64,000 bases of DNA from Minisyncoccia bacterium (GTDB taxonomy: Bacteria; Patescibacteriota; Minisyncoccia; Phycocordibacterales; UBA9973): the NCBI GenBank assembly GCA_965656375.1, contig CBFHKH010000001.1:580291-644290 (forward strand). The letters run 5' to 3'. The notes beneath the pieces are model-generated. The model searched no databases, was not told where the DNA came from, and worked only from the letters and a program-made list of their open reading frames with translations. Below, in pieces: positions 1 to 60,635 of this stretch. The number at the start of each line of letters is the position of its first letter. The stretch's first letter is position 1. The translations under genes were made by a program, and so were the position numbers.

Positions 1-1079
1 CTTTTTTCTCTTCTTTTTTAGCTGATCCTGTTACGAGTTCGCTCACAAGGGAACCTAACCCTTTGGCGAATTGGCGTGTCATGCTCGCGGCATCTTTCAC
101 CGACATACCCTCTTTTACATCACCAAGCATGATGTGGAATTTCCGGAGAATATCATCATCCTCAGGACAAATGGTGAACTGGATAGATGCACCTTCACCG
201 GACTTTTTGAGTTTAGTAAAAACATTCAAAATTATATTGAGTGGATCATGATCAATCGCATCATAGAGCTTGATCGGAAAAACTTCATGGCGAGCGAGTG
301 TCGCATATGAACCTGCCATCTGGCTTCCCTCTGTAAAGATATTGTAGTCATCAGGAACTTCGACAATTTTTGCATGAGGATGGACTCCGAGCAACTGTTT
401 TTCAAACAGGTCTGCCTTTCGTGCTGGAACTGCAGTGTAAAAGATAAAGTGATCAGTATTTTCTGCAAGCGCGATCTCGAGTGTGAAGTGATTACGGCTA
501 AAATTCTCGCGACCTTCACCAACTGAGTGCATCCCTGCATAGAACTGCTCCATAGCGGAGAGCAATTCTTTTAGTCCTTTTTTGTTTTCTGCGTCATCAT
601 CGGGATCAGGTAAAGTAATCTCGAAAAGTTTCATATCGAGCGATTTAAAAAGTGGAGTATTTTCCTTGAGACCTGGAATTTTGTGCGTACTATAGAGATA
701 CTGTACGAGGAATCGATGGAAATCATCATCAAGATGCGGATTGTTCATCTTCCCTACAATCGAAAGCGCACTTGAGATTCCCTTACTCAAAAGTACTCCG
801 AGCATCTCTTCCATCTTGTTGTCATGGGATTCTGGATGAAGGCGCAAGACAAGATTATTCGCCTCTTGTACTGGGATAACAGCACTTTTATGCATTACTT
901 CTTCTGGCTCATATCGTTTGTATTCTTTGATGACATCGTGCGCGATTTCAGCTTTGGAGTATTCAGTCCCAGCTTCCGCAAACGCTTTTTCTTTTTCCGC
1001 AATGTGCGCACGCAAAAATTCAAGCTCTTCTTGGGGAGTCTTGAATTTGGGAGCGCTGTTTAGATTAAAACCTTCCATT
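1..1079 (-). CDS. hypothetical protein, 3' end runs off the window start (more than 359 aa)
   Basis: Uninterrupted minus-strand reading frame from an ATG near 1079 to the window edge, found by manual translation (MEGFNLNSAPKFKTPQEELEFLRAHIAEKEKAF...). It is absent from the ORF track because no stop codon lies inside the window. No recognisable family. The small track ORFs 63-251, 71-310, 232-540 and 824-1063 lie inside it in other frames. Confidence 0.45.
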
Positions 1080-1086
1080 AAAACTA

Positions 1087-1854
1087 TTATATCATAGTTA
1101 AAATTTCTGGCTCACCCTCTGTGATCAAAATTGTATGTTCGAAGTGTGCACTACGAGATCCATCAGCAGTTTTGATAGTATAGCCATCAGACATACTCAC
1201 GATATCTTGCTTACCACTATTGAGCATTGGCTCAATAGCTACCACCATACCGGGGACAAGCTTTTCTCCTTTCCCTTTTTTCCCATAATTGGGAATATAG
1301 GGATCTTCATGGATATGTTTTCCTACCCCATGACCCGAAAGTTCTCTGACTATTCCGTAACGACCGGCTACGAATTTTTCTATCGCATACCCAATATCAC
1401 CCACGGTATTCCCTGCTTTTGCTTCGGCAATGCCGACAAAAAGCGCTTCTTTTGTAGTATGTAAAAGTTCTTGTGATGCTTTTGGTATTTTTCCAACAGC
1501 AACAGTAATTGCATGATCAGTAAACATTCCTTTATGTTTGAGTCCAAGGTCTATGGAAATTGTATCTCCTTCTTTCAGGACTTTACTCGCCTTTGGTATA
1601 CCGTGAACTATTTCATTATTGACTGAGGTACAAAGAGACGCTGGGTAGGCTTTCGCATGACCTTCAGGCTTGTATCCGAGGAATGCCGGCTCATCGCCAC
1701 CTTTTATAATAAGTTCGTAAGCATATTGATCGAGCTCCTTAGTTGTTACTCCAGGCTTCACTTGAGTAGCCACTTCTGCCAAAATAGCAGCAAGTCTTTT
1801 ACCGCCTTCACGTAATATCTCTATTTCTTTCTGAGTCTTTATGATGACTGCCAT
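1087..1854 (-). CDS. map: methionine aminopeptidase type I
   Basis: 255 aa. Pita-bread fold with conserved metal ligands (D..D..H..E..E); typical MetAP-I length; in the expected secY-adk-map neighbourhood. Confidence 0.9.
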   Translation of the reverse strand: MAVIIKTQKEIEILREGGKRLAAILAEVATQVKPGVTTKELDQYAYELIIKGGDEPAFLGYKPEGHAKAYPASLCTSVNNEIVHGIPKASKVLKEGDTISIDLGLKHKGMFTDHAITVAVGKIPKASQELLHTTKEALFVGIAEAKAGNTVGDIGYAIEKFVAGRYGIVRELSGHGVGKHIHEDPYIPNYGKKGKGEKLVPGMVVAIEPMLNSGKQDIVSMSDGYTIKTADGSRSAHFEHTILITEGEPEILTMI

Positions 1855-1883: not shown

Positions 1884-3569
1884 TTATACAACTTCCTGCT
1901 GATAGCATGATTCGCAATACAAAATCTCTGGTCGTTCTGGATCATACGAAGTTTCAAATTCATTTTGGCATTTTGCAGTGTGGGAATGATTTGATTTTTC
2001 ACACATACAAGATCTTTTCCAAAGCTTGGTAGGGCCTCTTTTTTGTAACAAATTTTGCTTTCTGCAAAAGAAACAAAGTCGCGGGATTGGAATTTGATTA
2101 AACTTATAAAACTGTAATTCACTTGGGATGATTTGATAGTTTCTACTGCAATCTTCACATTTCATGATTTCTTTAGTAAATGAATCAGAAACATCGTTTA
2201 TAGAATCAGGTATTTCTTGTATAGTTTCTAAACCTGTAGTTAGGGGTAATGAATCTTGCCATGTATATCCTTTTTTCAAGGCTTGATCTTTGGTCAATGG
2301 ATATTGTTCTTGTGCAATTGTCTCATTATAAGAGAATTTCGAAAGCTCTGTAGGAAAAAATTCTCCCCACTCTCCTAATTCTTTCATATCAGAAATAATT
2401 TGATCTCTCAGTTTAAAATATTCTGTTTTTTCATATTGAATATTAAAAATACAATATTTTGCGCTTTTTAAGCCTACACATCCAAATATATCTTCGCATG
2501 ACTGACATGAGTCGCTGTAGTATACATTTGTATCTTTATGACAATACATAGTGAAACATGTTCGATTTGAATTATCAGGATTAATACACTCGTAGCAGAG
2601 CTCCTGTTCGCCGCCACTCAGACAATCATAGCTATCCTTTACAGTGTCTCCTCTTTCAAAATACTTTGTATTTTCAGCTCTCACAACAATAAAGCAATTC
2701 TGTGAATTTTTTGAATTTACAAGGTAGTCACCGGTACAGTCAACACAATTTTTGAGACTCGCAAATCGATGAGGGAGTGTAAGGCGAAATTCTTCAAATT
2801 CTTTCTCTATTTTTGGTAAGGAAGTTGCACAATCAAATTTATATCCTTTTACTATTTCCATATATTCTTCTTTGGTATATTGAATATTCTTGAAACAGTA
2901 TTGTTTATTGCGAAGGTCGACACACATAAAGCAATTAGTACAACCCTTGCAGTCAAAACAATACGCACAATCTGTCATTGTCGATGATCGATATACATTC
3001 TTGCATTTATATGAATTATCTAGATTTATCGAAGAGTAGATATGATTACAATTGTCTTGGAGACCAATACAATCGACTATATCTTTGCCACCAACAAGAC
3101 ATGATGAGTAAAGGGCATTCTCAACTTTCCAAGAATTATCCGTTAGATAGCAGTCTTTACCGCGTGCAAAGTAATTTGTATATTCGCAATTTATGCTTCC
3201 GCTGCCATTGTCATTGAGAATTGCAAGTGCTGGAACTTTGTCGAGAAGATCTTTGAATTGGGAAAAGAAGGGTTTTGAAGAATCATATTTTTGTCCATAT
3301 GAAAAGGGATCCCATCCGTCTTTCCACCAGCAGTTTGAGCAATAGATCGGCAGGGTCTTATCTGGAGAGTAGATAGAAAGCGTATTATCAAAGCAGAGAT
3401 CACACTTTCTTTTATAAAAACAATAATCATTACGCCAGCTCATCCTACGTATACTTCGACACTCCGGACACCATGTTGGCGAAGGAACTTTTATCTTTTC
3501 GTAAAATGAGAGGTCATCTACTTCAAGAATAAAGTCCTTATTGCAATTTTGACAGTTGCGGGTTTCCAT
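1884..3569 (-). CDS. cysteine-rich paralog A (two zinc-ribbon-like ends plus two Cys-hexapeptide modules), unknown function
   Basis: Track ORF 1884-3605. The likely start is the internal Met (METRNCQNC), 2 nt after the stop of paralog B. About 44 Cys in 561 aa. N-terminus CQNCNKDF..FYEKIKVPSPTWCPECRSIRR. C-terminus KCEDCSRNY..FYKFNQIPIPRLCFFCRK ... YCESCYQQEVV. Internal modules: DCAYCFDCKGCTNCFMCVDLRNKQYCFKNIQYTKEEY and SCQSCEDIFGCVGLKSAKYCIFNIQYEKTEY. Confidence 0.8.
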   Translation of the reverse strand: METRNCQNCNKDFILEVDDLSFYEKIKVPSPTWCPECRSIRRMSWRNDYCFYKRKCDLCFDNTLSIYSPDKTLPIYCSNCWWKDGWDPFSYGQKYDSSKPFFSQFKDLLDKVPALAILNDNGSGSINCEYTNYFARGKDCYLTDNSWKVENALYSSCLVGGKDIVDCIGLQDNCNHIYSSINLDNSYKCKNVYRSSTMTDCAYCFDCKGCTNCFMCVDLRNKQYCFKNIQYTKEEYMEIVKGYKFDCATSLPKIEKEFEEFRLTLPHRFASLKNCVDCTGDYLVNSKNSQNCFIVVRAENTKYFERGDTVKDSYDCLSGGEQELCYECINPDNSNRTCFTMYCHKDTNVYYSDSCQSCEDIFGCVGLKSAKYCIFNIQYEKTEYFKLRDQIISDMKELGEWGEFFPTELSKFSYNETIAQEQYPLTKDQALKKGYTWQDSLPLTTGLETIQEIPDSINDVSDSFTKEIMKCEDCSRNYQIIPSELQFYKFNQIPIPRLCFFCRKQNLLQKRGPTKLWKRSCMCEKSNHSHTAKCQNEFETSYDPERPEILYCESCYQQEVV

Positions 3570-3571
3570 AA

Positions 3572-5326
3572 TTACACAATCTCTTGTTGATAACACTTTT
3601 CGCAATATACGATATCACCATCTTTTGGATTAAATCCTGTTCTAAATAGTTCACTACATGGCACATCTCCATGGATATGCTGCACGGTGTTCGTGAACTG
3701 CCCTGTTTCATCTTTCTTCCCAGCACACATACAGTGATTATCGTAGAGTGATATCTTGAATCGATCTGAAATTCGACGTTCGTGTCTGCACTCACTGCAG
3801 TGTGACGGTATTGGCAGGCTCTCACTTTTTAAGAAATTAAATTCATCGGCGAGAATCCGAAACGGTCTATTACAAACGCCGCACTCTAAAATCTCTTTTG
3901 TTATATCTTCTCCTACTTCACCTATTGAATCGGGTATTTCATCAGATTTCTTTGTAACAGCATATTTTCCAGGCTCTTCGTCTATCCAACCGTAATTATT
4001 AGCCACAATTTCTTCTTTGTCTTTGAGGAAATGCTGAAACGCTAAAGAATTATTATATCCAAAAGATGCAAACTCTATAGGGAAAAATTCTCCATATCTA
4101 TATATCAAACCTCGGGAATCAGTGTACGGCAATGCATTCATGTGTTCGATAATTTTTTCTCGGAGTGCCATATATTCCTCTTTGGTATATTGCGTATTAA
4201 ATATACAATATTGCTTGTTGCGCAATCCGACACAACCAAAACAATCTTTGCAAGATTTTAAATGAGTAGAATACTCTATATTGTTGTTATTTGGCCAGCA
4301 GTCCCAGGAAAATCGCACGTTATAGACATTCTCTCCGCAGACTGAGGTCTCGTAACAGAGCTCGACATCCTGTCCCCATATAGAATAATCAAGGCAATCT
4401 TTGATTTTTGCTACTGAAGCATATTGACTATACCGCACATCCTCTCCTCCTTTGACCATGTATGATTCAGTCACATTTTTTGAATGACTGACATATGAAC
4501 CAGAAAAGTTTAGATTTTGAAGTCCTTGATGGTATTTATTTATCTGAGTTTTCCAAAAAGCTCGAGCATTAGTACGGGCTTCATTGATACCAGCTTTTGT
4601 ATCTAGGCGCATTTCGGAAAGAATCTTGAAATATTCTTCTTTGGTATATTGCTGGTTGAAGATACAGTATGAGGCTTTACGCAAATTCGTACATCCAAAA
4701 CAATCATTGCATCCGAGACAATCTCTTGAGAACCACATATTGTGACACTCCACAGACATGATTGTAAAATAGCACTTATAACAATTCTGCAGCCAGAAAC
4801 ATTCGTAACACTTCTCAGAAGAGTTTACGTGTGAATCATCAATACAATTTTTTGAAAGAAAAAAATCATTACCATACAAACAATTCTCCGAAGAGTTTGA
4901 ATTAAAGCACAGATAACAATCTTTAAGCGTAGCTGCATTTGCTGCATATGGACTATCAATCATACGCTCAACATTAAGTGCATATGCAGGGACATCTTTC
5001 TCAAGCTCGAAGAATTGACTGAAAAAATCACGAGAGAAATCAAACTCTCTTCCATACTCCATAGGATCCCAGGAATCACTGAACCATTCTTGATCCGTCA
5101 CGACTTTTCGCAGAGCGGAAGGCGGATATAAGGAGAAAATATTTTCACCTGTGAATGCACTTTTTGCCTTAAAAAGCTTTCGTTCGTTTCTAAATGCAAA
5201 TCGTCGTTCTGCTCTACAATATGAACAAAATGTTGGTGGTGGAACTTTAATCTTGTCGTAGAAAGAAAAGTCTTCGGCTTCGATACTGAAACCTTTTTTA
5301 CAATTCTGACACGTTCGAGTTTCCAT
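3572..5326 (-). CDS. cysteine-rich paralog B, unknown function
   Basis: 584 aa. Begins METRTCQNCKKGFSIEAEDFSFYDKIKVPPPTFCSYCRAERRFAFRNER and ends YCEKCYQQEIV. Internal modules end DCLGCNDCFGCTNLRKASYCIFNQQYTKEEY and SCKDCFGCVGLRNKQYCIFNTQYTKEEY. Starts 6 nt after the pyrH stop, so it is in the same transcription unit. Confidence 0.8.
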   Translation of the reverse strand: METRTCQNCKKGFSIEAEDFSFYDKIKVPPPTFCSYCRAERRFAFRNERKLFKAKSAFTGENIFSLYPPSALRKVVTDQEWFSDSWDPMEYGREFDFSRDFFSQFFELEKDVPAYALNVERMIDSPYAANAATLKDCYLCFNSNSSENCLYGNDFFLSKNCIDDSHVNSSEKCYECFWLQNCYKCYFTIMSVECHNMWFSRDCLGCNDCFGCTNLRKASYCIFNQQYTKEEYFKILSEMRLDTKAGINEARTNARAFWKTQINKYHQGLQNLNFSGSYVSHSKNVTESYMVKGGEDVRYSQYASVAKIKDCLDYSIWGQDVELCYETSVCGENVYNVRFSWDCWPNNNNIEYSTHLKSCKDCFGCVGLRNKQYCIFNTQYTKEEYMALREKIIEHMNALPYTDSRGLIYRYGEFFPIEFASFGYNNSLAFQHFLKDKEEIVANNYGWIDEEPGKYAVTKKSDEIPDSIGEVGEDITKEILECGVCNRPFRILADEFNFLKSESLPIPSHCSECRHERRISDRFKISLYDNHCMCAGKKDETGQFTNTVQHIHGDVPCSELFRTGFNPKDGDIVYCEKCYQQEIV

Positions 5327-5332
5327 ATAGGT

Positions 5333-6019
5333 TTATTGTATCACTGTTCCAACAAACTTTTTACCATTGAGGTAATTATCTAAACTTTCAAGATCGCGGC
5401 CAGCGATAAAGGATACTTCGAGCCCAAGTTCTTGTGCTTTCTGGGATGCCACAGGGTCAAATGGTGTATTCATTCCTGAGGTCCAATCTTTTGGGATAAA
5501 TGTCAGGTATTGCGACCATGAAACCTCCTCGAACTTCTGTGCATTTGGATTGGTTTTTGGATCACTATCATATACATAACTTACATTTGAAAGATTAATG
5601 ACTTTTTTCGCACTAATCTCTTCAGCGGTAAGTACAGCATCCATATCTGTCGAACATCCTGGCTTCCAGCCTGCCCCAATAATAACTTTCTGTGAAAGTG
5701 ATGACACAGCGGATGGATCTGTGATGATATCTTCCGGTGCATAGCTTCCAAAAGACATCCGAACAAGTTGGGCATTAAGATGAGTACTATAAATGCCGAT
5801 CCAATCTAAATCCTCAGTTTTTGTATCTATAGTAGCTGAGAGTGCATTTTGATATACACGACATGTTTTTCCCCCACCAACAATTATGATAAAACGCTTG
5901 CCAGTTGCTACATGTCTCAAGATGAGCTCACGAAAAGAGACGATAAATTCTGGGTCTGGTGCATCAGGAACAACCATAGAACCGCCAAGTGATATAACAA
6001 TAAACTCTTGAGTTTCCAT
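5333..6019 (-). CDS. pyrH: UMP kinase (amino-acid-kinase fold, archaeal/CPR-like short form)
   Basis: 228 aa. Carries the ISLGGS and IVGGG glycine-rich motifs of the uridylate kinase / amino-acid kinase family. Confidence 0.7.
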   Translation of the reverse strand: METQEFIVISLGGSMVVPDAPDPEFIVSFRELILRHVATGKRFIIIVGGGKTCRVYQNALSATIDTKTEDLDWIGIYSTHLNAQLVRMSFGSYAPEDIITDPSAVSSLSQKVIIGAGWKPGCSTDMDAVLTAEEISAKKVINLSNVSYVYDSDPKTNPNAQKFEEVSWSQYLTFIPKDWTSGMNTPFDPVASQKAQELGLEVSFIAGRDLESLDNYLNGKKFVGTVIQ

Positions 6020-10693: not shown

Positions 10694-11077
10694 TTAAATA
10701 CTTATTTCTTTTACCCCTTCTGTTAGAGGTTGAGGTACGTTTTCACGTTCTTGCATATACTTAATAATCAGAAGATTATTTTTTTCAACTTCGTTTTTTC
10801 GTTGATCTTCTCTCTTTATAAGCCGCTTTCTCATGAAGAATAAGGATTCCGTCTGGGCATCAGGGATAAAAAATCTGGATCGGATTGCCGTTTCTACTGA
10901 ATCGAGTGTAGTTTTATTTATTATTCCTTCCCTTTCTTTTACCATGAGGTCAGTGCATAGAGAATCAATCATCTTTGAAATAACGGCTGATCGTATTTTA
11001 TATACTTGCCCAACTGTTTGAGCAGTAGCATTAAAAAATACAGTGATAAGTGCAAAGAATAAGATTACTTTTTTCAT
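10694..11077 (-). CDS. small exported protein (signal peptide), unknown function
   Basis: 127 aa. N-terminal MKKVILFFALITVFFNATAQ signal-peptide-like segment. Inserted between rplE and rpsZ, where canonical spc operons have no gene. Confidence 0.55.
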   Translation of the reverse strand: MKKVILFFALITVFFNATAQTVGQVYKIRSAVISKMIDSLCTDLMVKEREGIINKTTLDSVETAIRSRFFIPDAQTESLFFMRKRLIKREDQRKNEVEKNNLLIIKYMQERENVPQPLTEGVKEISI

Positions 11078-11230: not shown

Positions 11231-11653
11231 TTATTTACACCTAACTCCAGATGTATACCCTTCTTCATCAAGAGCTGTGGTATAGAAACCTGTGCCATCA
11301 GCACAATAGTATTTATTGGTAGCAGTTTTAATACGTGCGGTGAATGTGTGGACTTTTGCTATGCATTCAACTGGATTATCGATGATTTTATGAAGCGTAT
11401 CGAACTTTGATTGAAGACTCGTGCAAATATTATTCGACTTCGAAACGAAGTAATTGTTGTGATCGTAGAAGAATTTTTTTGCTTGGGATTGGAGTTGTGT
11501 AGAAACAGCATCTTTGACAACAGTCTCTGCAGAATCATAATCCTTATCTTTGACGGATTTCTGAAAAGCAGGGTTCTCATCAAGCTTGAAATACTTATAC
11601 CCGATAAAGAGAAGTATCAAAACGCCAATAATAAAAGCGACAGTTTTGTTCAT
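11231..11653 (-). CDS. membrane-anchored protein (N-terminal TM), unknown function
   Basis: 140 aa. MNKTVAFIIGVLILLFIGYKYF N-terminal anchor, then a Cys-containing soluble domain. Second gene of the insertion between rplE and rpsZ. Confidence 0.55.
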   Translation of the reverse strand: MNKTVAFIIGVLILLFIGYKYFKLDENPAFQKSVKDKDYDSAETVVKDAVSTQLQSQAKKFFYDHNNYFVSKSNNICTSLQSKFDTLHKIIDNPVECIAKVHTFTARIKTATNKYYCADGTGFYTTALDEEGYTSGVRCK

Positions 11654-37886: not shown

Positions 37887-37957
37887 GCGGGGTTGGTTTA
37901 GTGGTAGAACACGTCCTTGCCAAGGATGAGACAGGAGTTCGATTCTCCTACTCCGCA
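37887..37957 (+). tRNA. tRNA-Gly (anticodon GCC)
   Basis: 71 nt GCGGGGT TG GTTT AGTGGTA GAAC A CGTCC TTGCCAA GGATG AGAC AGGAG TTCGATT CTCCT ACTCCGC A. Confidence 0.8.
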
Positions 37958-37966
37958 CAGAAGCAT

Positions 37967-39496
37967 ATGGCCCAAACTAATATAGTAGTGCCTATCGATA
38001 ACTCAAAAATACCTTCATATGTTACACATGTAACAGACACTCTCGAAAAAGCAGGATTCGAGGCTTTTCTTGTTGGTGGGTGTGTCCGTGATATTTTAAT
38101 GGGGAGGGAACCAAAAGACTGGGACATGACAACAAATGCAACCCCAGAAGAAATCATTCCTATGTTCGAGAAAACTATATATGAAAACAGTTTTGGAACA
38201 GTTGGGGTATGTGTTACACATGAAACTGATGTTCTAGATATTACTAACCTGCCTGCGCAAGCCGGTGAAACACCAAAATACGACATTGTTGAAGTTACAC
38301 CATACAGAATTGAAGCAAAATATAGTGATTTTAGACATCCTGATCAAGTAGTATTCAGTAAAAATATAGAAGACGATCTTAAAAGGCGAGATTTTACTAT
38401 TAATGCTTTGGCATACAATACCTCTAAAGGACACATAATTGACCTATATAAAGGACAAAGTGATATAAAGGACAAAGTGATCAGATGCGTAGGAAACGCT
38501 TCAGATAGGTTCAGAGAGGATGCTCTGCGCATGCTCCGTGCAGTACGTTTTTCTACGGAGCTCGACTTCGCCGTTTCATATGAAACCATGGCTGCAATCA
38601 CAGAAAATGCCGAACTTCTGAAAAATATATCAATGGAAAGAATTCGAGATGAATTCACAAAAATAATCGAGAGTCCTAATCCCGCCCAGGGAATTGGATT
38701 ACTTCAGAAATTAGGATTGCTTACATATATTATTCCCGAACTCGAAGAGGGCATTGGTTGTGAGCAAGGCGGTGCACATATCTACGATGTCTTCGAGCAT
38801 TTACTCGGAGCGCTCGGCCACGCTGCAGACAAAGGCTATAGTACAGAGATCCGTCTTGCAGCGTTATTTCACGATATCGGCAAGCCTAAAAGCCGCCGAC
38901 CGGGAACCAAAAAAGCGTATACATTCTACGGCCATGAGGTCATCGGAGCTCGAATGGCAAAGGCTATTATGGAGCGACTAAAGTACCCGAAAAGGACGAC
39001 TGATCTCGTCGTCTCGCTCGTACGCAATCATATGTTCTTCTCTGATACAGAGCAGATCACTCTTTCAGCTGTACGCCGAATAGTACAAAAAGTAGGAAAG
39101 GATCATATCTGGGAACTCATGGAGATCCGGGAATGCGATCGTGTAGGTATGAAAAAAGCAGAAGCTCCATACCGCCTCCGCAAATATCATGCGATGATCG
39201 ATGAGGTACTTCGCGATCCGCTTTCAGTCGCACAGCTTGCTATTGATGGGGAAGTGTTAATAAAAGATCTCAACATGAAACCATCTCGCCGTATGGGGTG
39301 GATACTTCATGCACTTTTAGAAGTTGTGCTCGAAGATCCTAAGAAAAATACAATCGAATATTTAAAAGAAAAAGCCCTAGAGCTTGATACGCTTTCAGAT
39401 AAAGAATTAGAAGATTTAGGCGAAAAAGCGAAAGAACAGAAAGATATCCTTGAGCAGGAAGAAATTTTAAAATTACACAGGAAACATAAAGTTTAA
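37967..39496 (+). CDS. cca: CCA-adding enzyme / tRNA nucleotidyltransferase (class II nucleotidyltransferase head + HD domain)
   Basis: Start moved to the Met after the tRNA, since the track ORF begins inside tRNA-Gly. GGCVRD (G-G-x-V-R-D) nucleotidyltransferase signature; RRDFTINA; HD domain LFHDIGKP ... ECDRVGM. Confidence 0.8.
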   Translation: MAQTNIVVPIDNSKIPSYVTHVTDTLEKAGFEAFLVGGCVRDILMGREPKDWDMTTNATPEEIIPMFEKTIYENSFGTVGVCVTHETDVLDITNLPAQAGETPKYDIVEVTPYRIEAKYSDFRHPDQVVFSKNIEDDLKRRDFTINALAYNTSKGHIIDLYKGQSDIKDKVIRCVGNASDRFREDALRMLRAVRFSTELDFAVSYETMAAITENAELLKNISMERIRDEFTKIIESPNPAQGIGLLQKLGLLTYIIPELEEGIGCEQGGAHIYDVFEHLLGALGHAADKGYSTEIRLAALFHDIGKPKSRRPGTKKAYTFYGHEVIGARMAKAIMERLKYPKRTTDLVVSLVRNHMFFSDTEQITLSAVRRIVQKVGKDHIWELMEIRECDRVGMKKAEAPYRLRKYHAMIDEVLRDPLSVAQLAIDGEVLIKDLNMKPSRRMGWILHALLEVVLEDPKKNTIEYLKEKALELDTLSDKELEDLGEKAKEQKDILEQEEILKLHRKHKV

Positions 39497-40344: not shown

Positions 40345-42042
40345 TTAGACAAATTCTTGCTGATAGCACTTTTCACAGTACACAGTTTCTGGTCGTTCTG
40401 GAGCAAACGCAGTCATGATAGAAGTTTTACACTTTGCGCATTCTCGGTTCCATAAGCGTGGAGGATTGAGCCGGGCAAAATGAGCTTTCTGCCGACAGTG
40501 AGGACATGAGTGGGGTATCGGCAAATTCATCTTCTGTAATAAATTAAATTCTAGCGGACCAATCTTGTATCCTCGATTACAGAGAGAACATTTAATAATT
40601 TCACTCGTAATAGCGTCTTTTGTTTCTTTTATTGTTTCTGGTAAATCGCTCGCATCAAGAGTTGTTGTGTATTCAGTTTGTTCTCCTTCATACCAGGAGT
40701 ATCCTATAGAAATAGCTTCCTCTTTCGTCTTTGGGAAAAATTTCATTGCGTTTGATTCATTATAGGAAAGAGGGCTAATAAAAAGAGGGAGGAATTCTCC
40801 GTAGCTCCATACTCGACCTAAATCATCTACATAAGGATTTTTTTTCATATCTTCTATGATATGGGCTTTCATTTTTTCGTATTCCTCTTTTGAGTATTCC
40901 TTATTCAAAATACAATATGATTTACGTTTTAAATTAACGCAACCAAAAACATTTTTACAGGCTGAAGCCCAGATCGAGTATTCAGCATTTAATCCATCTG
41001 GATAGCAGTTTTGAGAAAATCGCACACCACTTGCTTTTTCTCCAGTAGAATGGGTCTCATACATGAGTTCAACATTTGCTCCCCAGCCCGAATAGTCATA
41101 GCAATCTTTTGCAGATGGGACAGTAATAAATTGGCAATATCTGCATTCTTCGGCGTTATTACTCAAATACATATTTTGAGAATTTTTTGACTCGTATGTA
41201 TACTCACCAGTTACATTAAGGTTTAGAGAATTACCACTGTAGACTCTGTAAGGTTTTGTTAACCAGAATGCCTGAGCTTTTTCTTGCATATCTTGTAATT
41301 TCTTCCATGAATCAAGACCGAGCTCTTTTATTTTTTCCACATAGTTTTCTTTGGAATATTTTTGGTTAAAAATACAATATGATTCTCCGCGTAAATTGGC
41401 ACAGCCGATACAGTTTGTGCAGTTATAGCAATTGCGAGAGAACCATACATCAGTACATGCATCACACTCTTCAGAGAAATAGGTTTGGTAGCATTTATTA
41501 ATACCCATTGATTCATAACAAAGCTCAGACTCTTGAGCTCGCATACAATCAGAGGAATCCTTGAGTTGGAAAATGATAGATGAATGCGTAATATTCTCAC
41601 AATAATCTGCCCAAAAAGTTAGATAGCAATTTCGAAGCCATGTTGCTCCGTTACAATATTCAGAATTTACCATTGTAGGACCAATAGTTTCTGTAGCTAC
41701 CCAAGGTGATTTACGAGAAAGTTCGTAAAGTTGTTCAAAAAAATTACGATTAGGGTCATACTCCATTCCATATTCTGTACCGTCCCAATCATCAGCCCAC
41801 CAACATTCAGAGCAAAATACAGTGATAGGCTTTTCTTTATGATACATGGAAAGTGTACGCTTTTTACACTTATCACAGTCTCTCCAATAAACAGTCCACA
41901 CGCTATATGAACCGATGCGACGAATAAGCCGACATTCCGGACACCATGTAGGGTGGGGAACATTGATCTTTTTATAGAAAAGCTGGTCACGTTCATCGAT
42001 CACGAAATCATTTTTACAATTCTGACAGGATTTTGTTTCCAT
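40345..42042 (-). CDS. cysteine-rich paralog C, unknown function
   Basis: 565 aa. Begins METKSCQNCKNDFVIDERDQLFYKKINVPHPTWCPECRLIRR and ends YCEKCYQQEFV. Modules NCYNCTNCIGCANLRGESYCIFNQKYSKENY and ACKNVFGCVNLKRKSYCILNKEYSKEEY. A TATAAT lies 6 nt upstream of the ATG, so the mRNA is probably leaderless. Confidence 0.8.
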   Translation of the reverse strand: METKSCQNCKNDFVIDERDQLFYKKINVPHPTWCPECRLIRRIGSYSVWTVYWRDCDKCKKRTLSMYHKEKPITVFCSECWWADDWDGTEYGMEYDPNRNFFEQLYELSRKSPWVATETIGPTMVNSEYCNGATWLRNCYLTFWADYCENITHSSIIFQLKDSSDCMRAQESELCYESMGINKCYQTYFSEECDACTDVWFSRNCYNCTNCIGCANLRGESYCIFNQKYSKENYVEKIKELGLDSWKKLQDMQEKAQAFWLTKPYRVYSGNSLNLNVTGEYTYESKNSQNMYLSNNAEECRYCQFITVPSAKDCYDYSGWGANVELMYETHSTGEKASGVRFSQNCYPDGLNAEYSIWASACKNVFGCVNLKRKSYCILNKEYSKEEYEKMKAHIIEDMKKNPYVDDLGRVWSYGEFLPLFISPLSYNESNAMKFFPKTKEEAISIGYSWYEGEQTEYTTTLDASDLPETIKETKDAITSEIIKCSLCNRGYKIGPLEFNLLQKMNLPIPHSCPHCRQKAHFARLNPPRLWNRECAKCKTSIMTAFAPERPETVYCEKCYQQEFV

Positions 42043-54582: not shown

Positions 54583-55059
54583 ATGATGACACTATCAGAA
54601 AAAATATTAATACTTTTAAATACAAAAAATTCTAGATATAAAGGAGTTCCAATAAACATCTTTGGATTGCCCGTATTCCAAGAATACAACAAAAGGTCAG
54701 TCAGAAACGCTTTTTCAAAACTTCGTTCGAAAAACTTAATAGTATATTATGGTTCATCGGTGAAAATAACAAAAAATGGAGAAAAGTATCTCAAAAGAAG
54801 GAGTGCTCTTTTTGAGACTTTTGAATCTCCGTATAAAGATAATGAAGAAAAGAATTTATTAGTCTTATTTGATATTCCGGAAGGGCGCAAGGCTGAGCGA
54901 GAATGGTTTAGGAGACATTTAAGAATACGATATGATTCAGAAAAGTGTCTGGGTTGGTCCATCACCCCTTCCAAAAGAATTTGTTGTATATATAAAGAAA
55001 ATAAAATTGGAGGATTCTATAAAAACTTTCAAGCTTGCAAGGTCATACAACACAAATAA
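54583..55059 (+). CDS. PaaX-like putative transcriptional regulator (winged helix plus PaaX middle-domain-like segment)
   Basis: 158 aa. The central segment KNLLVLFDIPEGRKAEREWFRRHLRIRYDSEKCLGWSITPS resembles the PaaX middle domain (W.LL.L....K....K..L...GFG.L..S). This is a comparison from memory. Confidence 0.35.
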   Translation: MMTLSEKILILLNTKNSRYKGVPINIFGLPVFQEYNKRSVRNAFSKLRSKNLIVYYGSSVKITKNGEKYLKRRSALFETFESPYKDNEEKNLLVLFDIPEGRKAEREWFRRHLRIRYDSEKCLGWSITPSKRICCIYKENKIGGFYKNFQACKVIQHK

Positions 55060-55103: not shown

Positions 55104-55913
55104 TCAGATAGTTTCATTTAATCTTTTTGATTCTGCCCATGCAAGCTCATAGATCTTTTTCATAGCATCGGCAATTTCGGCAGATTCAATGATGATTCCA
55201 AGCTTTTCACGCCATGATGCAATCATTACTTTATTATCATAGATATTTATCTCGGGATGGAACCCATATGTATCAGGAACGATGAGCGATTTGCGCATTT
55301 CCTCTGTATCAAGACTCGCTCGCTCCCGAGCATCAGCTGAATTAGGAAATATAGCTCTGATCGAAATCCCTTTTTTCGCTCGTCGTTTGTAATATTCAGG
55401 GAAATAATGAGGCAGAGTCGGCTGTATATCTTCTACACTTGCATAAGCAAGGATTTCCTCAGTCGAACTCAACGTATCTTCGTAGACTGTCTCTAAGCCA
55501 TCTTTGCCTTCATAAAATTTAATCTTTGGTCGATTATCCTTATTGTGGATTGATATTAGCTCAGGAATTATTTCTTTTGCTTGTGTAAGTGCAGAAGTGT
55601 ACTCTTTTATTTTTTCTTGCAGGATTTTCTCGATATTCTCTGGAGATTCTGCAGTATACTCCTGTTTCGGCTCTTTACCGGATGTACGAACAAGTTTTTT
55701 AAGTTCAAGAGAGGCAAGCACATGGTAGGCAGTAGGGCGATTGATGCCTGCTTTACGAGCAATCTCTGTTACAGTACCTTTTCCAAGTTCAAGTAATGCT
55801 AAATAGACTTCAATTTCTTTTTCCGAGAAACCGATACTTAGAAGACTTTTTTTGATATTGAATTGGGTATTTTCCATATAATCCATTATATTCAAACTAC
55901 TGAAATCTGTCAA
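55104..55913 (-). CDS. TrmB-family transcriptional regulator
   Basis: 269 aa. N-terminal winged HTH (LSIGFSEKEIEVYLALLELGKGTVTEIARKAGINRPTAYHVLASLELKKLV), then a TrmB C-terminal effector-like domain. Confidence 0.55.
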   Translation of the reverse strand: MTDFSSLNIMDYMENTQFNIKKSLLSIGFSEKEIEVYLALLELGKGTVTEIARKAGINRPTAYHVLASLELKKLVRTSGKEPKQEYTAESPENIEKILQEKIKEYTSALTQAKEIIPELISIHNKDNRPKIKFYEGKDGLETVYEDTLSSTEEILAYASVEDIQPTLPHYFPEYYKRRAKKGISIRAIFPNSADARERASLDTEEMRKSLIVPDTYGFHPEINIYDNKVMIASWREKLGIIIESAEIADAMKKIYELAWAESKRLNETI

Positions 55914-55992: not shown

Positions 55993-56021
55993 TTGACAGA
56001 TAAAGCCTAGTCTGCTATACT
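55993..56021 (+). promoter_or_regulatory. sigma70-like promoter for gene 56109-56480
   Basis: TTGACA, 17-nt spacer, TGCTATACT. Same layout and TGC-extended -10 as the rpsZ and rpsS promoters. Confidence 0.5.
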
Positions 56022-56512: not shown

Positions 56513-56824
56513 ATGAAAACAGAAAACAATTTGACTTTCACGCTAAAAAGTAGAAAAGCTTTCAATCGCTGGAAAAGAGTTGTGAAGAATGATCCTAATC
56601 TCCAAGAAGTTCTTGAGGAAACTATCAAATGGGGTTCCTTAATGGAAAGAAGAATTAGAAAAGGATGGTGGAGTCTATGTACCAGTGAAACTTTTGAAAA
56701 AACAGAGCTTGCAAAAACCTATATGGGATTTTTGGCACCTGCAATTTTGATTGAATGCTGGAAATATAGCGGTCGCTTATTTTCAAAAGGGGAAGAGCCG
56801 TTGAATATTAAATTTGAAGATTAA
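56513..56824 (+). CDS. hypothetical protein
   Basis: 103 aa, basic, no motifs. Confidence 0.4.
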   Translation: MKTENNLTFTLKSRKAFNRWKRVVKNDPNLQEVLEETIKWGSLMERRIRKGWWSLCTSETFEKTELAKTYMGFLAPAILIECWKYSGRLFSKGEEPLNIKFED

Positions 56825-56911: not shown

Positions 56912-58642
56912 ATGACTAATCAAACCTGCAACACATGCGCTAAAGAATTTGAGGTCACAAATGATGATCTGGCCTTTTATGATCAAATGAAGGTTGAAAT
57001 ACCTAGTTTTTGCTCGGAATGCAGGCTCTTGCAGCGTCTTATATGGAGAAACGAAAAGACACTCTATCGCAGAGAGTGTGACATGTGTCATAGGCAGATG
57101 ATATCAATCTATAGTCTAGATTCAGAATACACTGTCTACTGTCGTGAATGCTTTCATTCTGATAACTGGGATCCTCAGTCTTTTGGCAGACAAATAGACT
57201 TTTCCCGTCCATTCCTTGAACAATTTCGCGCGCTTCAATTACAAGTTCCTCGAATTTCTTCTTTCGTATTCCAAAATACAAAGAGTGAATATGTAAACGG
57301 AGCAGCGTATAATAAGAATTGCTATATGATCTTCAGAAGCGATAATAATGAGGATCTACTCTTTAGTTATTCGACATCGAACTCTCGTTCATCGTCAGAT
57401 CTTTTAAATTCTACCGAGTGTAACATGTGCTATGGTTGCGTCGGATGTATCAAATGCTATCGCACGATATATTCCGAGGATTGTTCAGCTTCGCAAAACT
57501 TGATCGCATGTAAAAATTGTATAAACTGCCAGGATTGCATAGGGTGTGTTAATTTGCACAATGTTCAATACGCGATTTTTAATGAGATCTATACAAAAGA
57601 AGAGTATCTAAAGAAATCCAAAGAACTTGGATTAGAATCTCGAATTAATCTTTCTTCACTCCAGAAGAAAATAAATGAGTTCCAAGCAAAATTTCCAGTA
57701 AAATATTTACATGGGTTGAAAAATGTGGAAGTTTCGGGAGATTATATCTTGAATTCAAAGAATGCTCATATAGTGTTTGATTCGCAAGAATTAGAAAACT
57801 GTAAGTTTATAAATCATGGTGAACATGCGAAAGATTCATATGACTCTTATGTCCTTGTAGATAAAAGTGAACGATCATACAATGTGATAAGCGGAATTGC
57901 TTTAAATACTGTACTCTCGGGGAATTGCATTTGGCATGGGTATAATATCTCCTATTCGGACACCTGCGAAAATTCTCATGATCTTTTTGGTTGTGTCGGA
58001 TTAAGGAAAAAGGAATACTGTATTTTGAATACACAATATACAAAAGAAGAATACGAAGCGCTTGTCCTAAAAATAATCGAGAACATGAGAAGCATGCCAT
58101 TTAGTGATGGAAAAGTAGATTATCAATATGGAGATCCATTACCAGCGACCTTCTCTCCGTTTGCATACAATGAAACAGTCGCTCATGAATATTTTCCTTC
58201 CGATAAGGAAAAAGCGGAACACAGAGGATTTTCTTGGAAAGAAGGAGAAAAGAAAAAGTATGAGGCAACCTTAGAAGGGAACTCTACTCCGGACGAGATA
58301 AAGAATGTAGAAGACTCAATTGTCAAAGAGATCATTGCTTGTGCTCATAGAAATAATTGTGCTCACCAGTGTACAGATGCTTTTAAAATAACAGAGGATG
58401 AATTACACTTATACAGAAGGATCAACATCCCACTTCCTACCTTGTGTTTTAATTGTAGAAATGGAGAGCGGATTGAGAAACGCAATCCATGCAAGCTATG
58501 GCTACGGTCATGCATGTGTACCATAGAAAACCACCACAATCACAAGGGAGCAACTTGTATGGAAGAATTTGAAACAAGCTATGCTCCAGACCGAAAAGAA
58601 ATCGTGTATTGTGAATCATGTTATCAGCAGGAAGTATCTTAA
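56912..58642 (+). CDS. cysteine-rich paralog D, unknown function
   Basis: 576 aa. Begins MTNQTCNTCAKEFEVTNDDLAFYDQMKVEIPSFCSECRLLQRL and ends YCESCYQQEVS. Modules NCINCQDCIGCVNLHNVQYAIFNEIYTKEEY and DLFGCVGLRKKEYCILNTQYTKEEY. Confidence 0.8.
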   Translation: MTNQTCNTCAKEFEVTNDDLAFYDQMKVEIPSFCSECRLLQRLIWRNEKTLYRRECDMCHRQMISIYSLDSEYTVYCRECFHSDNWDPQSFGRQIDFSRPFLEQFRALQLQVPRISSFVFQNTKSEYVNGAAYNKNCYMIFRSDNNEDLLFSYSTSNSRSSSDLLNSTECNMCYGCVGCIKCYRTIYSEDCSASQNLIACKNCINCQDCIGCVNLHNVQYAIFNEIYTKEEYLKKSKELGLESRINLSSLQKKINEFQAKFPVKYLHGLKNVEVSGDYILNSKNAHIVFDSQELENCKFINHGEHAKDSYDSYVLVDKSERSYNVISGIALNTVLSGNCIWHGYNISYSDTCENSHDLFGCVGLRKKEYCILNTQYTKEEYEALVLKIIENMRSMPFSDGKVDYQYGDPLPATFSPFAYNETVAHEYFPSDKEKAEHRGFSWKEGEKKKYEATLEGNSTPDEIKNVEDSIVKEIIACAHRNNCAHQCTDAFKITEDELHLYRRINIPLPTLCFNCRNGERIEKRNPCKLWLRSCMCTIENHHNHKGATCMEEFETSYAPDRKEIVYCESCYQQEVS

Positions 58643-58644
58643 TT

Positions 58645-60330
58645 ATGATAAAACAAAATTGTAAAACATGTTCGAAAGAGTTTGAGATACGTGATGAAGA
58701 CGTAGTGTTTTATGAGCAGATGAAGAGCCCGATGCCACAATATTGTCCTGATTGTCGAATGATGCGAAGACTCGCATTTCGCAACGAACGAACATTGTAC
58801 AAGAGAGCGTGTGATCTTTGTAAAACTGATGGAGTATCGCTATATCCAGCAGGTACACCATTCCCAGTATACTGCCATAAATGCTGGTGGAGTGATAAAT
58901 GGGATCCACGAAGTTTCGCTATGGAGTATGATTCATCCCGACCATTTCTCGATCAATTCAAAGAATTGCAAAGTAAAGTTCCGCGAATTGCACTCTTAGT
59001 CATTGATTCTGTACGATCCGACTATACAAACAATGCAGGAGAAAATAAGGACTGCTATCTGATATTTGCAGCCGAGAATAACGAAGATTGTATGTATGGA
59101 CGCCTTGTACAGAGATGCAAAGGATGTAACGATTGCGCTTTTACCTATGACTCAGAATTATGCTATGAATGCATTGATTGCCGTTCATGCTTCAAATGTA
59201 TGTATAGCGAGCAATGTCAGTCTTCAAGCGACCTATTATTCTGCTACAACATGCGAGACTCGCAAAATTGTATTTTATGTACAAATGGCAGGCATGTTTC
59301 GTACTCGATACTCAATGTAAAATATACAAAGGAGGAGTTTGAAAAAAGAAAAGGAGAGATTCTCTCAAGCTATGAGAATATTGAGAAAGCAAAGAAAGAG
59401 TACGCCGAACTCAAGAACCAATGTATTGTAAAAAATGCGTGGCAGACAAAGTGCCACAATACAACAGGGGACTATATGTATAACTGCTACGATGGGATAC
59501 GGCTTTTCGATGTATCGGATGCAAAGAATTGCTCATATATGGCTGACAGTATGGATGTAAAAGACTCTATGGATTGCAATAACTTTTATATAAAGTGTGA
59601 ATTTGAATACGATATGATGGGAGTACTGGGTGGATCTAAAAATAAACATGGTTTTTATGTGATGTGGTGTACGAATACAGAATATTGTGATTCATGTTAT
59701 CACTCAAATGATCTTTTTGGATGTATCAGACTCAATAAAGAAAGTTATTCAATTTTAAATAAGAAATACTCAAAAGAAGAGTATGAGATACTGCGTGATC
59801 AAATCATTGAAGCAATGAAAGCTGACGGATCATACGGGCAATTTTTCCCTTCGTCTTTATCTCCATTTGGTTACAACGAGACTCTTGCAAAAGAATATTT
59901 CCCGCTTACACGCGATGAAGCAATAGAGAAGGGATTTCGCTGGCAAGAGCAAAACACAGGAACATTTGGAAAAGAAACGATGAATGAAGATGCAATTCCT
60001 AAAACAGTAGAAAATATACAAGACTCAATCCTAGGAGATATACTTGCATGTAACGAATGTGGGAAAAATTTCAAAATTACACAGATGGAACTCGATTTCT
60101 ATAAGAGAATGGATGTTCCGCTGCCACACAAAGATTTCGAATGCCGGCATCAAGATCGAATGAAAAAAAGAAATCCACGAGCTCTCTGGTTACGTTCTTG
60201 TATGTGCGATAAGGAAAATCATGTGAATCATGGTAGAGCAGTGTGTGCTGAAAGATTTGAAACGAGTTACTCTCCAGATCGTACGGAGATACTATATTGC
60301 GAATCATGTTATCAGCAAGAAATATCATAA
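58645..60330 (+). CDS. cysteine-rich paralog E, unknown function
   Basis: Start placed at MIKQNCKTCSKEF, 2 nt after the paralog D stop; the track ORF starts at 58618 and overlaps D. Begins ...FYEQMKSPMPQYCPDCRMMRRLAFRNERTLYKRACDLCK and ends YCESCYQQEIS. Modules ...YSILNVKYTKEEF and DLFGCIRLNKESYSILNKKYSKEEY. Confidence 0.8.
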   Translation: MIKQNCKTCSKEFEIRDEDVVFYEQMKSPMPQYCPDCRMMRRLAFRNERTLYKRACDLCKTDGVSLYPAGTPFPVYCHKCWWSDKWDPRSFAMEYDSSRPFLDQFKELQSKVPRIALLVIDSVRSDYTNNAGENKDCYLIFAAENNEDCMYGRLVQRCKGCNDCAFTYDSELCYECIDCRSCFKCMYSEQCQSSSDLLFCYNMRDSQNCILCTNGRHVSYSILNVKYTKEEFEKRKGEILSSYENIEKAKKEYAELKNQCIVKNAWQTKCHNTTGDYMYNCYDGIRLFDVSDAKNCSYMADSMDVKDSMDCNNFYIKCEFEYDMMGVLGGSKNKHGFYVMWCTNTEYCDSCYHSNDLFGCIRLNKESYSILNKKYSKEEYEILRDQIIEAMKADGSYGQFFPSSLSPFGYNETLAKEYFPLTRDEAIEKGFRWQEQNTGTFGKETMNEDAIPKTVENIQDSILGDILACNECGKNFKITQMELDFYKRMDVPLPHKDFECRHQDRMKKRNPRALWLRSCMCDKENHVNHGRAVCAERFETSYSPDRTEILYCESCYQQEIS

Positions 60331-60331
60331 T

Positions 60332-60355
60332 AAAAATCCCCTTTAGGGGATTTTT
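60332..60355. terminator. bidirectional terminator after paralog E
   Basis: aaaaatcccc ttta ggggattttt. Confidence 0.7.
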
Positions 60356-60635
60356 ATATTTTCTTTTTTACTGTCTTTTTTGTAGTAGCTTTTTTCTTTA
60401 CTTTGGCTGCAGGCTTTGGAGAATGAGGGGCTGTTTCAAGAGTGATAAGTGGAGGATCAAGGTCAACACTACTTTTTTTCTTTATTACCTTCTTCTTGGT
60501 TGTTTTCTTTTTTGCTGTTGTCTTTGAGGTTGTCTTTGTCGTCGCAGCAAATGCAGTACTTGGAATCAAAGCAGTCGAGGTGAAAGCGAAGCTAATGATG
60601 AGAGAAAATATAAATGTAAGTGTTTTATTCTTCAT
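60354..60635 (-). CDS. small exported Lys/Thr-rich basic protein
   Basis: 93 aa. Signal peptide, then TTKTTSKTTAKKKTTKKKVIKKK... low-complexity basic repeats. Confidence 0.4.
   Translation of the reverse strand: MKNKTLTFIFSLIISFAFTSTALIPSTAFAATTKTTSKTTAKKKTTKKKVIKKKSSVDLDPPLITLETAPHSPKPAAKVKKKATTKKTVKKKI

Follow-up and report, generated by a model that had tools for sequence, protein, structure and literature searches.

Which kind of protein is encoded by the five large cysteine-rich genes in this stretch of a Minisyncoccia bacterium genome, and what does it work with? The stretch (the window) spans 64,000 nucleotides of contig CBFHKH010000001.1. An earlier note, made from the sequence alone, had singled out five paralogous open reading frames (ORFs), which we call A, B, C, D and E, with B as the reference for residue numbering (Table 1). 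All five lie where the note had placed them, are intact and can be aligned from end to end. Their pairwise identity to the first copy is 37-40%, in line with its estimate of 30-40%, and together they sum to 8,556 nucleotides or 13.4% of the window (about 8.6 kb and 13% in the note). In none of the five copies did we detect a hydrophobic N-terminus, a signal peptide or a transmembrane-like segment. The listed motifs are all present in the all-copy alignment: the N-terminal CxxC...FY..K..VP.P..C..CR, WxxDxWDP and the C-terminal FETSY.P.R.E.V.YCE.CYQQE. The cysteine content had to be revised, from about 44 (about 8%) in each copy to 35-44 (6.0-7.8%), with 44 in B only; the median of 173 full-length relatives, to which all conservation percentages below refer, is 35. 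Our tentative answer, still well short of probable, is that the family is a multi-zinc partner (client or adaptor) of orphan soluble VirD4-like ATPases in an Hsp70-linked context.

Each protein consists, in this order, of an N module, the domains M1 and M2, an acidic linker and a C module. Comparison of the family profile with itself uncovered two internal duplications. Each end module holds two Cys4 fingers, 1 and 2 in N and 3 and 4 in C. The N module is homologous to the C module (hhalign probability 99.7%, E 2.6e-25) and M1 is homologous to M2 (probability 99.9%, E 4.5e-33; the boundaries of the two domains are approximate). The cysteines of finger 1 are conserved in 95-98% of the relatives, those of finger 3 in 86-99% and those of finger 4, which reads C534-x17-C552-x2-C555 with a variant first pair, in 99-100%. 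Finger 2 is conserved at 63-84% and is missing in about one third of the relatives and in A. The most conserved central stretch is the M1 coil C207-x2-C210-x2-C213-x2-C216 (77-98%), and about half of all cysteines are only 30-50% conserved. Judged by sequence, metal binding by the four treble-clef-type CxxC...CxxC sites and by the CxxCxxCxxC coil is plausible. The Cys4 sites are predicted to be occupied by metal, and the coil is conserved enough that it may form a fifth metal site. The metal half of the suggested metal-binding or redox role is thereby retained, and the redox half is weighed below as a rival explanation.

In the central domains, cysteines occupy every third alignment column and never the other two phases. 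The autocorrelation of cysteine frequency in M1 is 0.67 at lag 3 and about -0.23 at the lags between, with more peaks at 9 and 12 over about 100 residues; that of M2 peaks at lag 9. We modelled two copies with AlphaFold2. The model of B (79 sequences) reached a predicted local distance difference test score (pLDDT) of 83.4 and a predicted template modelling score (pTM) of 0.87, and the model of C, made from a deeper alignment of 122 sequences, reached 89.8 and 0.90. Both models agree on one compact architecture. In the C model, M1 has a pLDDT of 86-97 and the DSSP pattern E--E--EEEE-- is repeated eight to nine times with a strict 12-residue period. The confident model of M1 is a β-helix whose 12-residue coils have cysteine at every third, inward-facing position. 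A polyproline-II bundle, prompted by the period-3 cysteines and by a first model without DSSP strands, was dropped because the second, deeper model shows regular β-strands. Foldseek searches of PDB and BFVD gave no match at E<1e-3, and there is no solved structure alike beyond generic solenoids. We regard this structural part as solid: at least three to four Cys4 sites are combined with twin Cys-lined β-helices in a cytoplasmic protein.

Next, we compared the family with known domains. Scans of the five copies and 79 relatives against Pfam, NCBIfam, PADLOC and PHROGs returned matches of the terminal fingers, sub-threshold in the window copies, and the family phrog_15341. The finger matches belong to zf_Tbcl and zf_Tbcl_2, 'probable treble clef' Pfam domains of about 40 residues whose function is unknown. 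For zf_Tbcl (PF13451), the best window copy scored 22.8 bits (E 8.9e-5; cut-off 24) and the other four gave no score; 24 of the 79 relatives match at E<0.05, and PF13451 is precomputed for the proteins P0011, P0020 and P0080. For zf_Tbcl_2 (PF23477, cut-off 27) and TIGR04272 (cut-off 36), the window copies scored 14.6-21.6 bits, below both, and 29 of the 79 relatives match at E<0.05 (best 6.5e-8). The zf_Tbcl pattern, two CxxC pairs around F.[IF]...[DE]..FY...P, occurs in fingers 1 and 3 of all five copies, which share C..C...F.[IF]...[DE]..FY......P..C..CR, and finger 2 has the exact CxxC-x17-CxxC form. However, such domains cover less than 30% of the protein, and the central ~400 residues are without any Pfam model. 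Sequence searches of PDB with the family profile, the N module and the finger of the ATPase described below found nothing. In PADLOC, none of the five copies matched a family at E≤1. There was no Fer4 match to suggest a ferredoxin-type [4Fe-4S] site, and the coil CxxCxxCxxC lacks the proline of CxxCxxCxxxCP.

The closest described shape is the Tenebrio molitor antifreeze protein TmAFP (PDB 1ezg, PF02420), whose coils are likewise 12 residues long and turn every third residue inward. No Pfam match of the family to it was obtained, however, even at E≤10. The TxT ice-binding face, the TCTxSxxCxxAx repeat and secretion are features of TmAFP that the family does not have; the family is cytoplasmic, and its helix is duplicated and capped by zinc fingers. 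Cysteine positions i and i+6 show an anticorrelation in the family (phylogeny uncorrected), which makes a cross-coil i/i+6 disulfide of the TmAFP type unlikely. A second likeness is the Campylobacter phage CPt10 protein CPt10_1641 (141 amino acids; L167 2914-3339), a near-pure xDCxxC hexad repeat with cysteine at every third residue over about 90 residues. It aligns with M1 at an hhalign probability of 96% (E 2.5e-9), a likeness that may be partly compositional. It has no fingers, linker or second domain and comes from an unrelated host and lineage. CPt10_1641 and its relatives are probably PHROG phrog_15341 (function unknown), whose matches reach E ~1e-5 in four of the five window copies. The phage gene is set among replication and nucleotide-metabolism genes. 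The depositor's GenBank notes assigning PF02420 to the phage protein were not counted because current Pfam does not reproduce them.

A literature search found no description of the family, its Pfam accessions or Cys-rich paralogs of the candidate phyla radiation (CPR). In public data the family comprises thousands of proteins which, where named, are almost always 'hypothetical protein'. No confident full-length profile match to a characterised family was obtained; by the earlier note, such a match would have removed the novelty. We rate the family as lying outside the known kinds of protein and system, which is a statement on characterisation and not a demonstrated new mechanism.

To whom does the family belong? 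A five-sequence profile found 4,266 clusters at 90% identity (E≤1e-3; top E ~1e-270), a similarity that chance could not produce. Among 1.84 billion 50%-identity representatives there were 5,620 matches at E≤1e-3 and 2,355 at E≤1e-30, the latter a lower bound for the size of the family, and the best 150 of these matches were mostly full-length proteins of 545-600 amino acids. With one genome per GTDB species, at least 585 loci contain the family. Our neighbourhood counts come from 80 of these loci, each of up to 13.7 kb, and from a set of 82 family-centred loci that includes them. All lineage-named loci among the 80 are Patescibacteria, among them Nomura-, Lipton-, Giovannoni-, Jorgensen-, Staskawicz- and Sungbacteria, Paceibacterota, Peribacteria and TPA bins labelled Saccharibacteria. 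At least two copies are present in 62 of the 80 loci, in arrays of two to eight genes, and neighbouring copies are co-directional in 113 of 114 pairs with a median gap of 46 nucleotides. A fixed long-then-short paralog order, or a pairing rule for the presence of finger 2, did not hold in the arrays, where all four orders occur. In some arrays a member is broken into two neighbouring ORFs (L020 5795-7536; L029 5694-7408; L068 1790-3535; L072 6222-7895). These are frameshifted pseudogenes or assembly errors, a hint of birth-and-death turnover in the arrays.

The window copies are more similar to proteins of other genomes (best 43-61% identity) than to their window siblings (37-42%). Therefore the duplications are old and predate the compared genomes, as had been proposed, and the abundance of the family in related genomes shows that it did not arrive recently as mobile cargo. 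These data bear on the idea that the genes are mobile-element cargo or a selfishly proliferated anti-phage component. The high copy number, the occasional split copies and the weak relative in Campylobacter phages and phrog_15341 would fit such an origin. Against them stand the age of the paralogs, the absence of any PADLOC match and a GC content of the paralog genes (36-38%) that falls within the window range of 34-45%. No transposase or integrase flanks the arrays, and the only gene of the integrase family in the window is about 1.7 kb away from C. In the 2.9 million viral contigs of IMG/VR we found one edge match only, and tblastn on 50,697 phages gave first nothing and then only matches of E 0.03-0.1 to Campylobacter phage Cys-repeat proteins. 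We consider this explanation largely refuted and give it hardly any weight.

We then looked at the genes around the family. Clustering of the non-family ORFs identified a P-loop ATPase of the VirD4/TrwB/TraG/DUF87 type in 32 of the 82 family-centred loci. By chance it would be expected in about 3% of loci, a rough estimate from about two such genes per ~1-Mb genome (PMC12102498). The ATPase usually lies on the same strand as the family, 2-100 nucleotides away, and passes the Pfam cut-offs of TrwB_AAD_bind, DUF87, TraG-D_C and T4SS-DNA_transf. It occurs in three forms. The short form has about 485-515 amino acids. In the long form, the ATPase domain is followed by a zf_Tbcl_2 finger (PF23477, 53.9 bits in the one scored directly) and a long low-complexity tail. 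The third has an N-terminal DUF8128 domain. In four ATPases checked, which cover the three forms, there was no transmembrane-like segment. A CxxC-x15-20-CxxC finger is present in 73 of 136 ATPases, and in profile-profile comparison it is homologous to family fingers 2 (probability 95.7%) and 4 (probability 88.7%). In the window the order is A-B-map-ATPase, so that the ATPase is two genes downstream of B.

Some further observations concern the ATPase. In the relatives with a finger, the tail is disordered, 150 to nearly 400 residues long and conserved at its end (...VPEEVLRKVLEE). Where the ATPase is not beside the family (L127-L166, e.g. L158 6322-7986), a protein of about 456 amino acids with multiple transmembrane segments lies directly before it in 29 loci, a hint that this ATPase system also exists in a membrane-tethered version. 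Past the left end of the window and directly after the ATPase (L001 15223-18252) follow CYTH, NDK, CYTH, CYTH and a gene with a faint HD match. Three CYTH (triphosphate tunnel) paralogs are an unusual cluster.

The second recurrent context is the Hsp70 locus. Of the 82 loci, 12 contain dnaK, 9 dnaJ, 5 grpE and 6 a PaaX-like regulator. The genes are typically arranged as grpE - family - family - regulator - dnaK - long ATPase, or as family - short ATPase - dnaJ. In an ATPase-centred scan of metagenome contigs, a cassette of long ATPase, one or two family genes and short ATPase appeared in 18 of 80 loci, in all of which the ATPase has about 70% or more identity to the query. More distant ATPases are preceded by the multi-transmembrane protein of about 456 amino acids instead.

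The Hsp70 context could also speak for a redox or metal stress protein: a thiol or zinc buffer, or an Hsp33-like redox-switched holdase which releases its metal on oxidation and hands clients to DnaK/DnaJ/GrpE. The proteins have 23-47 cysteines and four to five Cys4 sites, there are many copies per genome, and the position in the grpE-dnaK-dnaJ cluster with the PaaX-like regulator is recurrent. Cys4 zinc sites and this placement are also what the family has in common with the DnaJ CxxCxGxG domain and Hsp33. However, no Hsp33 or DnaJ zinc-domain signature was found, there is no sequence or profile similarity in Pfam or NCBIfam, and the fold is entirely different. Bulk buffering would not call for so many conserved non-Cys motifs or for an exact length, which argue instead that structure and partner are specific. 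The weak conservation of about half of the cysteines also weighs against this rival. We find this explanation unlikely.

A nucleic-acid-binding factor, acting on RNA and the ribosome or on DNA, is about as unlikely in our estimate. Here the four terminal basic treble-clef fingers would grip the nucleic acid, and the neighbouring VirD4/FtsK-type ATPase would translocate nucleic acid instead of handling protein. TrwB/VirD4 relatives are DNA-dependent ATPases, which agrees with the Pfam TrwB_AAD_bind match. The finger modules are mildly basic (median isoelectric points of 8.1 for N and 8.6 for C) and rich in conserved arginine. Moreover, A and B sit inside the spc ribosomal operon, and elsewhere the family has neighbours such as rluD, L19, L21, S9 and ScpAB. 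Yet the whole proteins are acidic (isoelectric points 5.3-5.7; linker 4.5), and Pfam and NCBIfam scans found no known nucleic-acid-binding domain. The ribosomal neighbours are not conserved: the ribosomal-operon position of A and B is peculiar to this genome and not shared by its relatives. This explanation also leaves the recurrent linkage to dnaK, dnaJ and grpE unaccounted for.

Diverged tandem paralogs adjoining a coupling-protein homologue resemble effector loci or the substrate loci of type VII secretion systems. In type IV secretion system (T4SS) effectors with VirD4 and in ESX/type VII substrates with EccC, such paralogs likewise adjoin a P-loop ATPase of the VirD4/FtsK superfamily. The family could accordingly be imagined as secreted or injected effectors, whose invariant C-terminus is read by the ATPase for export through a type IV system into a host. 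The termini are invariant and could act as recognition signals, conservation reaches the extreme C-terminus, and T4SS are widespread in Patescibacteria (PMC12102498). However, the ATPases here are without membrane anchor or adjoining channel genes. A 2025 survey counted 5,713 VirD4-like genes in 2,918 Patescibacteria genomes, of which 148 were near virB4, and suggested exaptation (PMC12102498). The family proteins have no signal peptide, are 40-60% identical across lineages and stand in housekeeping operons, unlike fast-evolving effectors, and tightly folded zinc proteins would be poor translocation substrates. We therefore consider export improbable.

The reading we prefer, a partner of the orphan soluble ATPases, is built on the gene linkage and on the shared finger domain; a physical contact between protein and ATPase, and the direction in which their relationship runs, we infer from them. 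The linkage gives the orphan VirD4-like ATPases a candidate partner. The family protein would be a cytoplasmic, multi-zinc chain of finger pair, β-helix, β-helix, acidic linker and finger pair. It would work with the hexameric ATPases of Patescibacteria that are soluble, VirD4/TrwB-like and orphan, in the proteostasis or stress context of the dnaK/dnaJ/grpE locus. The conserved finger-bearing termini may serve as docking elements, and the diverged paralogs may provide several specificities for one machine.

Several observations weigh against this partnership. In 50 of the 82 family loci there is no ATPase within reach, and in the window C, D and E are all far from one. Below about 65% identity to the query, ATPases were never adjoined by the family. 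The window's own ATPase is without the finger. No single subfamily is tied to the ATPase, and the idea of a dedicated subfamily was rejected on this ground. Since the family sits in housekeeping operons generally, the linkage could partly be hitch-hiking. Finally, M2 was modelled at a pLDDT of only 69-79 in the C model.

A more specific version of the partner reading appears slightly more doubtful to us. The family and the paired soluble ATPases, the long one with finger and disordered tail and the short one, would make up a hitherto unrecognised cytoplasmic machine, specific to Patescibacteria and set within the Hsp70 locus. In it, an exapted conjugation-type ATPase would remodel, load or move metal-filled Cys β-helix proteins. 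The readings set out above are not all mutually exclusive.

Table 1. Positions of the family genes, their domains and adjoining features in the window
Feature	Position	Strand	Remarks
Paralog A	3572..5326	-	584 amino acids, 35 Cys; finger 2 Cys replaced; family hidden Markov model 817 bits
Paralog B	1884..3569	-	561 amino acids, 44 Cys; fingers 1-4 all intact
B N module, residues 1-85	3315..3569	-	finger 1 C6/C9/C34/C37, zf_Tbcl-like
B N module, finger 2	within 3315..3569	-	C56/C59/C77/C80, CxxC-x17-CxxC, zf_Tbcl_2-like
B M1, residues 108-243	2841..3248	-	predicted Cys-lined β-helix of 12-residue coils; end CxGCxNCFxC...YCxxN.QYTKEEY and helix
B M2, residues 261-395	2385..2789	-	M1 repeat with fewer Cys; ladder C355/C364/C373
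B acidic linker, residues 396-465	2175..2384	-	motif YGEFFP.ELSPF.YNET.A...FPLTKEEA...G..W; pLDDT >90
B C module, residues 466-561	1887..2174	-	finger 3 C471/C474/C499/C502; finger 4 C521/(C523)/C534/C552/C555; end YCExCYQQEV
Paralog C	40345..42042	-	565 amino acids, 36 Cys; lone copy, YceI-like and DinB-like genes on either side
C M1 β-helix, residues 122-228	41359..41679	-	predicted; DSSP 12-residue repeat, pLDDT 86-97
Paralog D	56912..58642	+	576 amino acids, 36 Cys
Paralog E	58645..60330	+	561 amino acids, 40 Cys; starts 2 nucleotides past the end of D
Terminator-like bidirectional hairpin	60330..60357		12-bp stem; directly 3' of E, closing the D/E pair
Soluble VirD4/TrwB/TraG-like ATPase, DUF8128 form, 3' part	1..1078	-	full 909-amino-acid gene at L001 12492-15221
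map, methionine aminopeptidase (Peptidase_M24)	1087..1854	-	between B and the ATPase gene
AA_kinase-family gene	5333..6019	-	directly upstream of A; Pfam AA_kinase only

Within the window, A and B stand in the order L16...L15-secY-adk-(AA_kinase)-A-B-map, inside the ribosomal-protein run. The distances are 6 nucleotides from the AA_kinase gene to A, 2 from A to B and 29 from B to map. The earlier note had described this position correctly, 6 nucleotides past the upstream gene in the ribosomal-secY-adk unit. For that gene, which it had named pyrH, our scans show membership of Pfam AA_kinase only, and this broader assignment is the one we use. It had also expected co-transcription of the pair, and at a very high level. 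Scans for consensus promoters and terminators near the pair were at chance level and uninformative on expression, and for this reason it is by spacing alone that co-transcription of A and B is suggested. We did not retain the very high level, given this basis and a ribosomal-operon position that relatives do not share.

For E, an in-frame upstream ATG at 58618 would give a protein of 570 amino acids overlapping the end of D; the family N-terminus fits the start at 58645. The exact 561-amino-acid product was not in the protein collection searched. Public gene calls probably use another start, possibly that of the 570-amino-acid form from the ATG at 58618.

Upstream of D and E, two divergent near-perfect sigma-70 consensus promoters lie between a TrmB-like regulator gene and small ORFs, at 55885-55913 (-) and 55993-56021 (+). 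Their sequences are TTGACA-17-TATAAT (12/12) and TTGACA-17-TATACT with an extended TG. A 103-amino-acid ORF just 5' of D (56513-56824, +) has a weak match to Tad4, a Thoeris inhibitor family (E 0.0019), which is below the cut-off (18.9 bits vs 25). The window ORF 54583-55059 has only a 22-residue motif in common with the PaaX-like neighbours seen elsewhere and no Pfam match.

Two other regions of the window deserve mention. In the spc operon, two small genes without Pfam match lie between rplE and the Zn-type rpsN (10694-11077 and 11231-11653, both on the - strand). One encodes 127 amino acids with a signal-peptide-like N-terminus and the other 140 amino acids with a single hydrophobic helix near the N-terminus. 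A CCA-adding-enzyme-like ORF (37901-39496) has a mechanically assigned GTG start that overlaps tRNA-Gly(GCC) at 37887-37958, so the true start must be further downstream.

Patescibacteria make up a large share of bacterial diversity, with genomes of about 1 Mb that leave little spare room. That 13% of the window and arrays of up to eight genes are kept in such tiny genomes therefore implies a function important to the lineage. Beyond the earlier note, the family now has the N/C and M1/M2 duplications, the predicted 12-residue β-helix, phylum-wide tandem arrays and the linkage to the ATPase and dnaK. These provide several handles: a defined architecture with a confidently modelled Cys-lined β-helix to which no solved structure corresponds, metal sites that are predicted to be stoichiometric and are accessible to direct measurement, and a specific candidate genetic partner in the orphan VirD4-like ATPases, whose role the 2025 survey left open. 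If the ATPase link is functional, two unknowns would become one testable system, which may reveal a new use of conjugation-type ATPases. If the family and the paired ATPases do form one machine, this would account for thousands of orphan type IV coupling protein homologues in CPR bacteria and for the several percent of their tiny genomes that is spent on the family.

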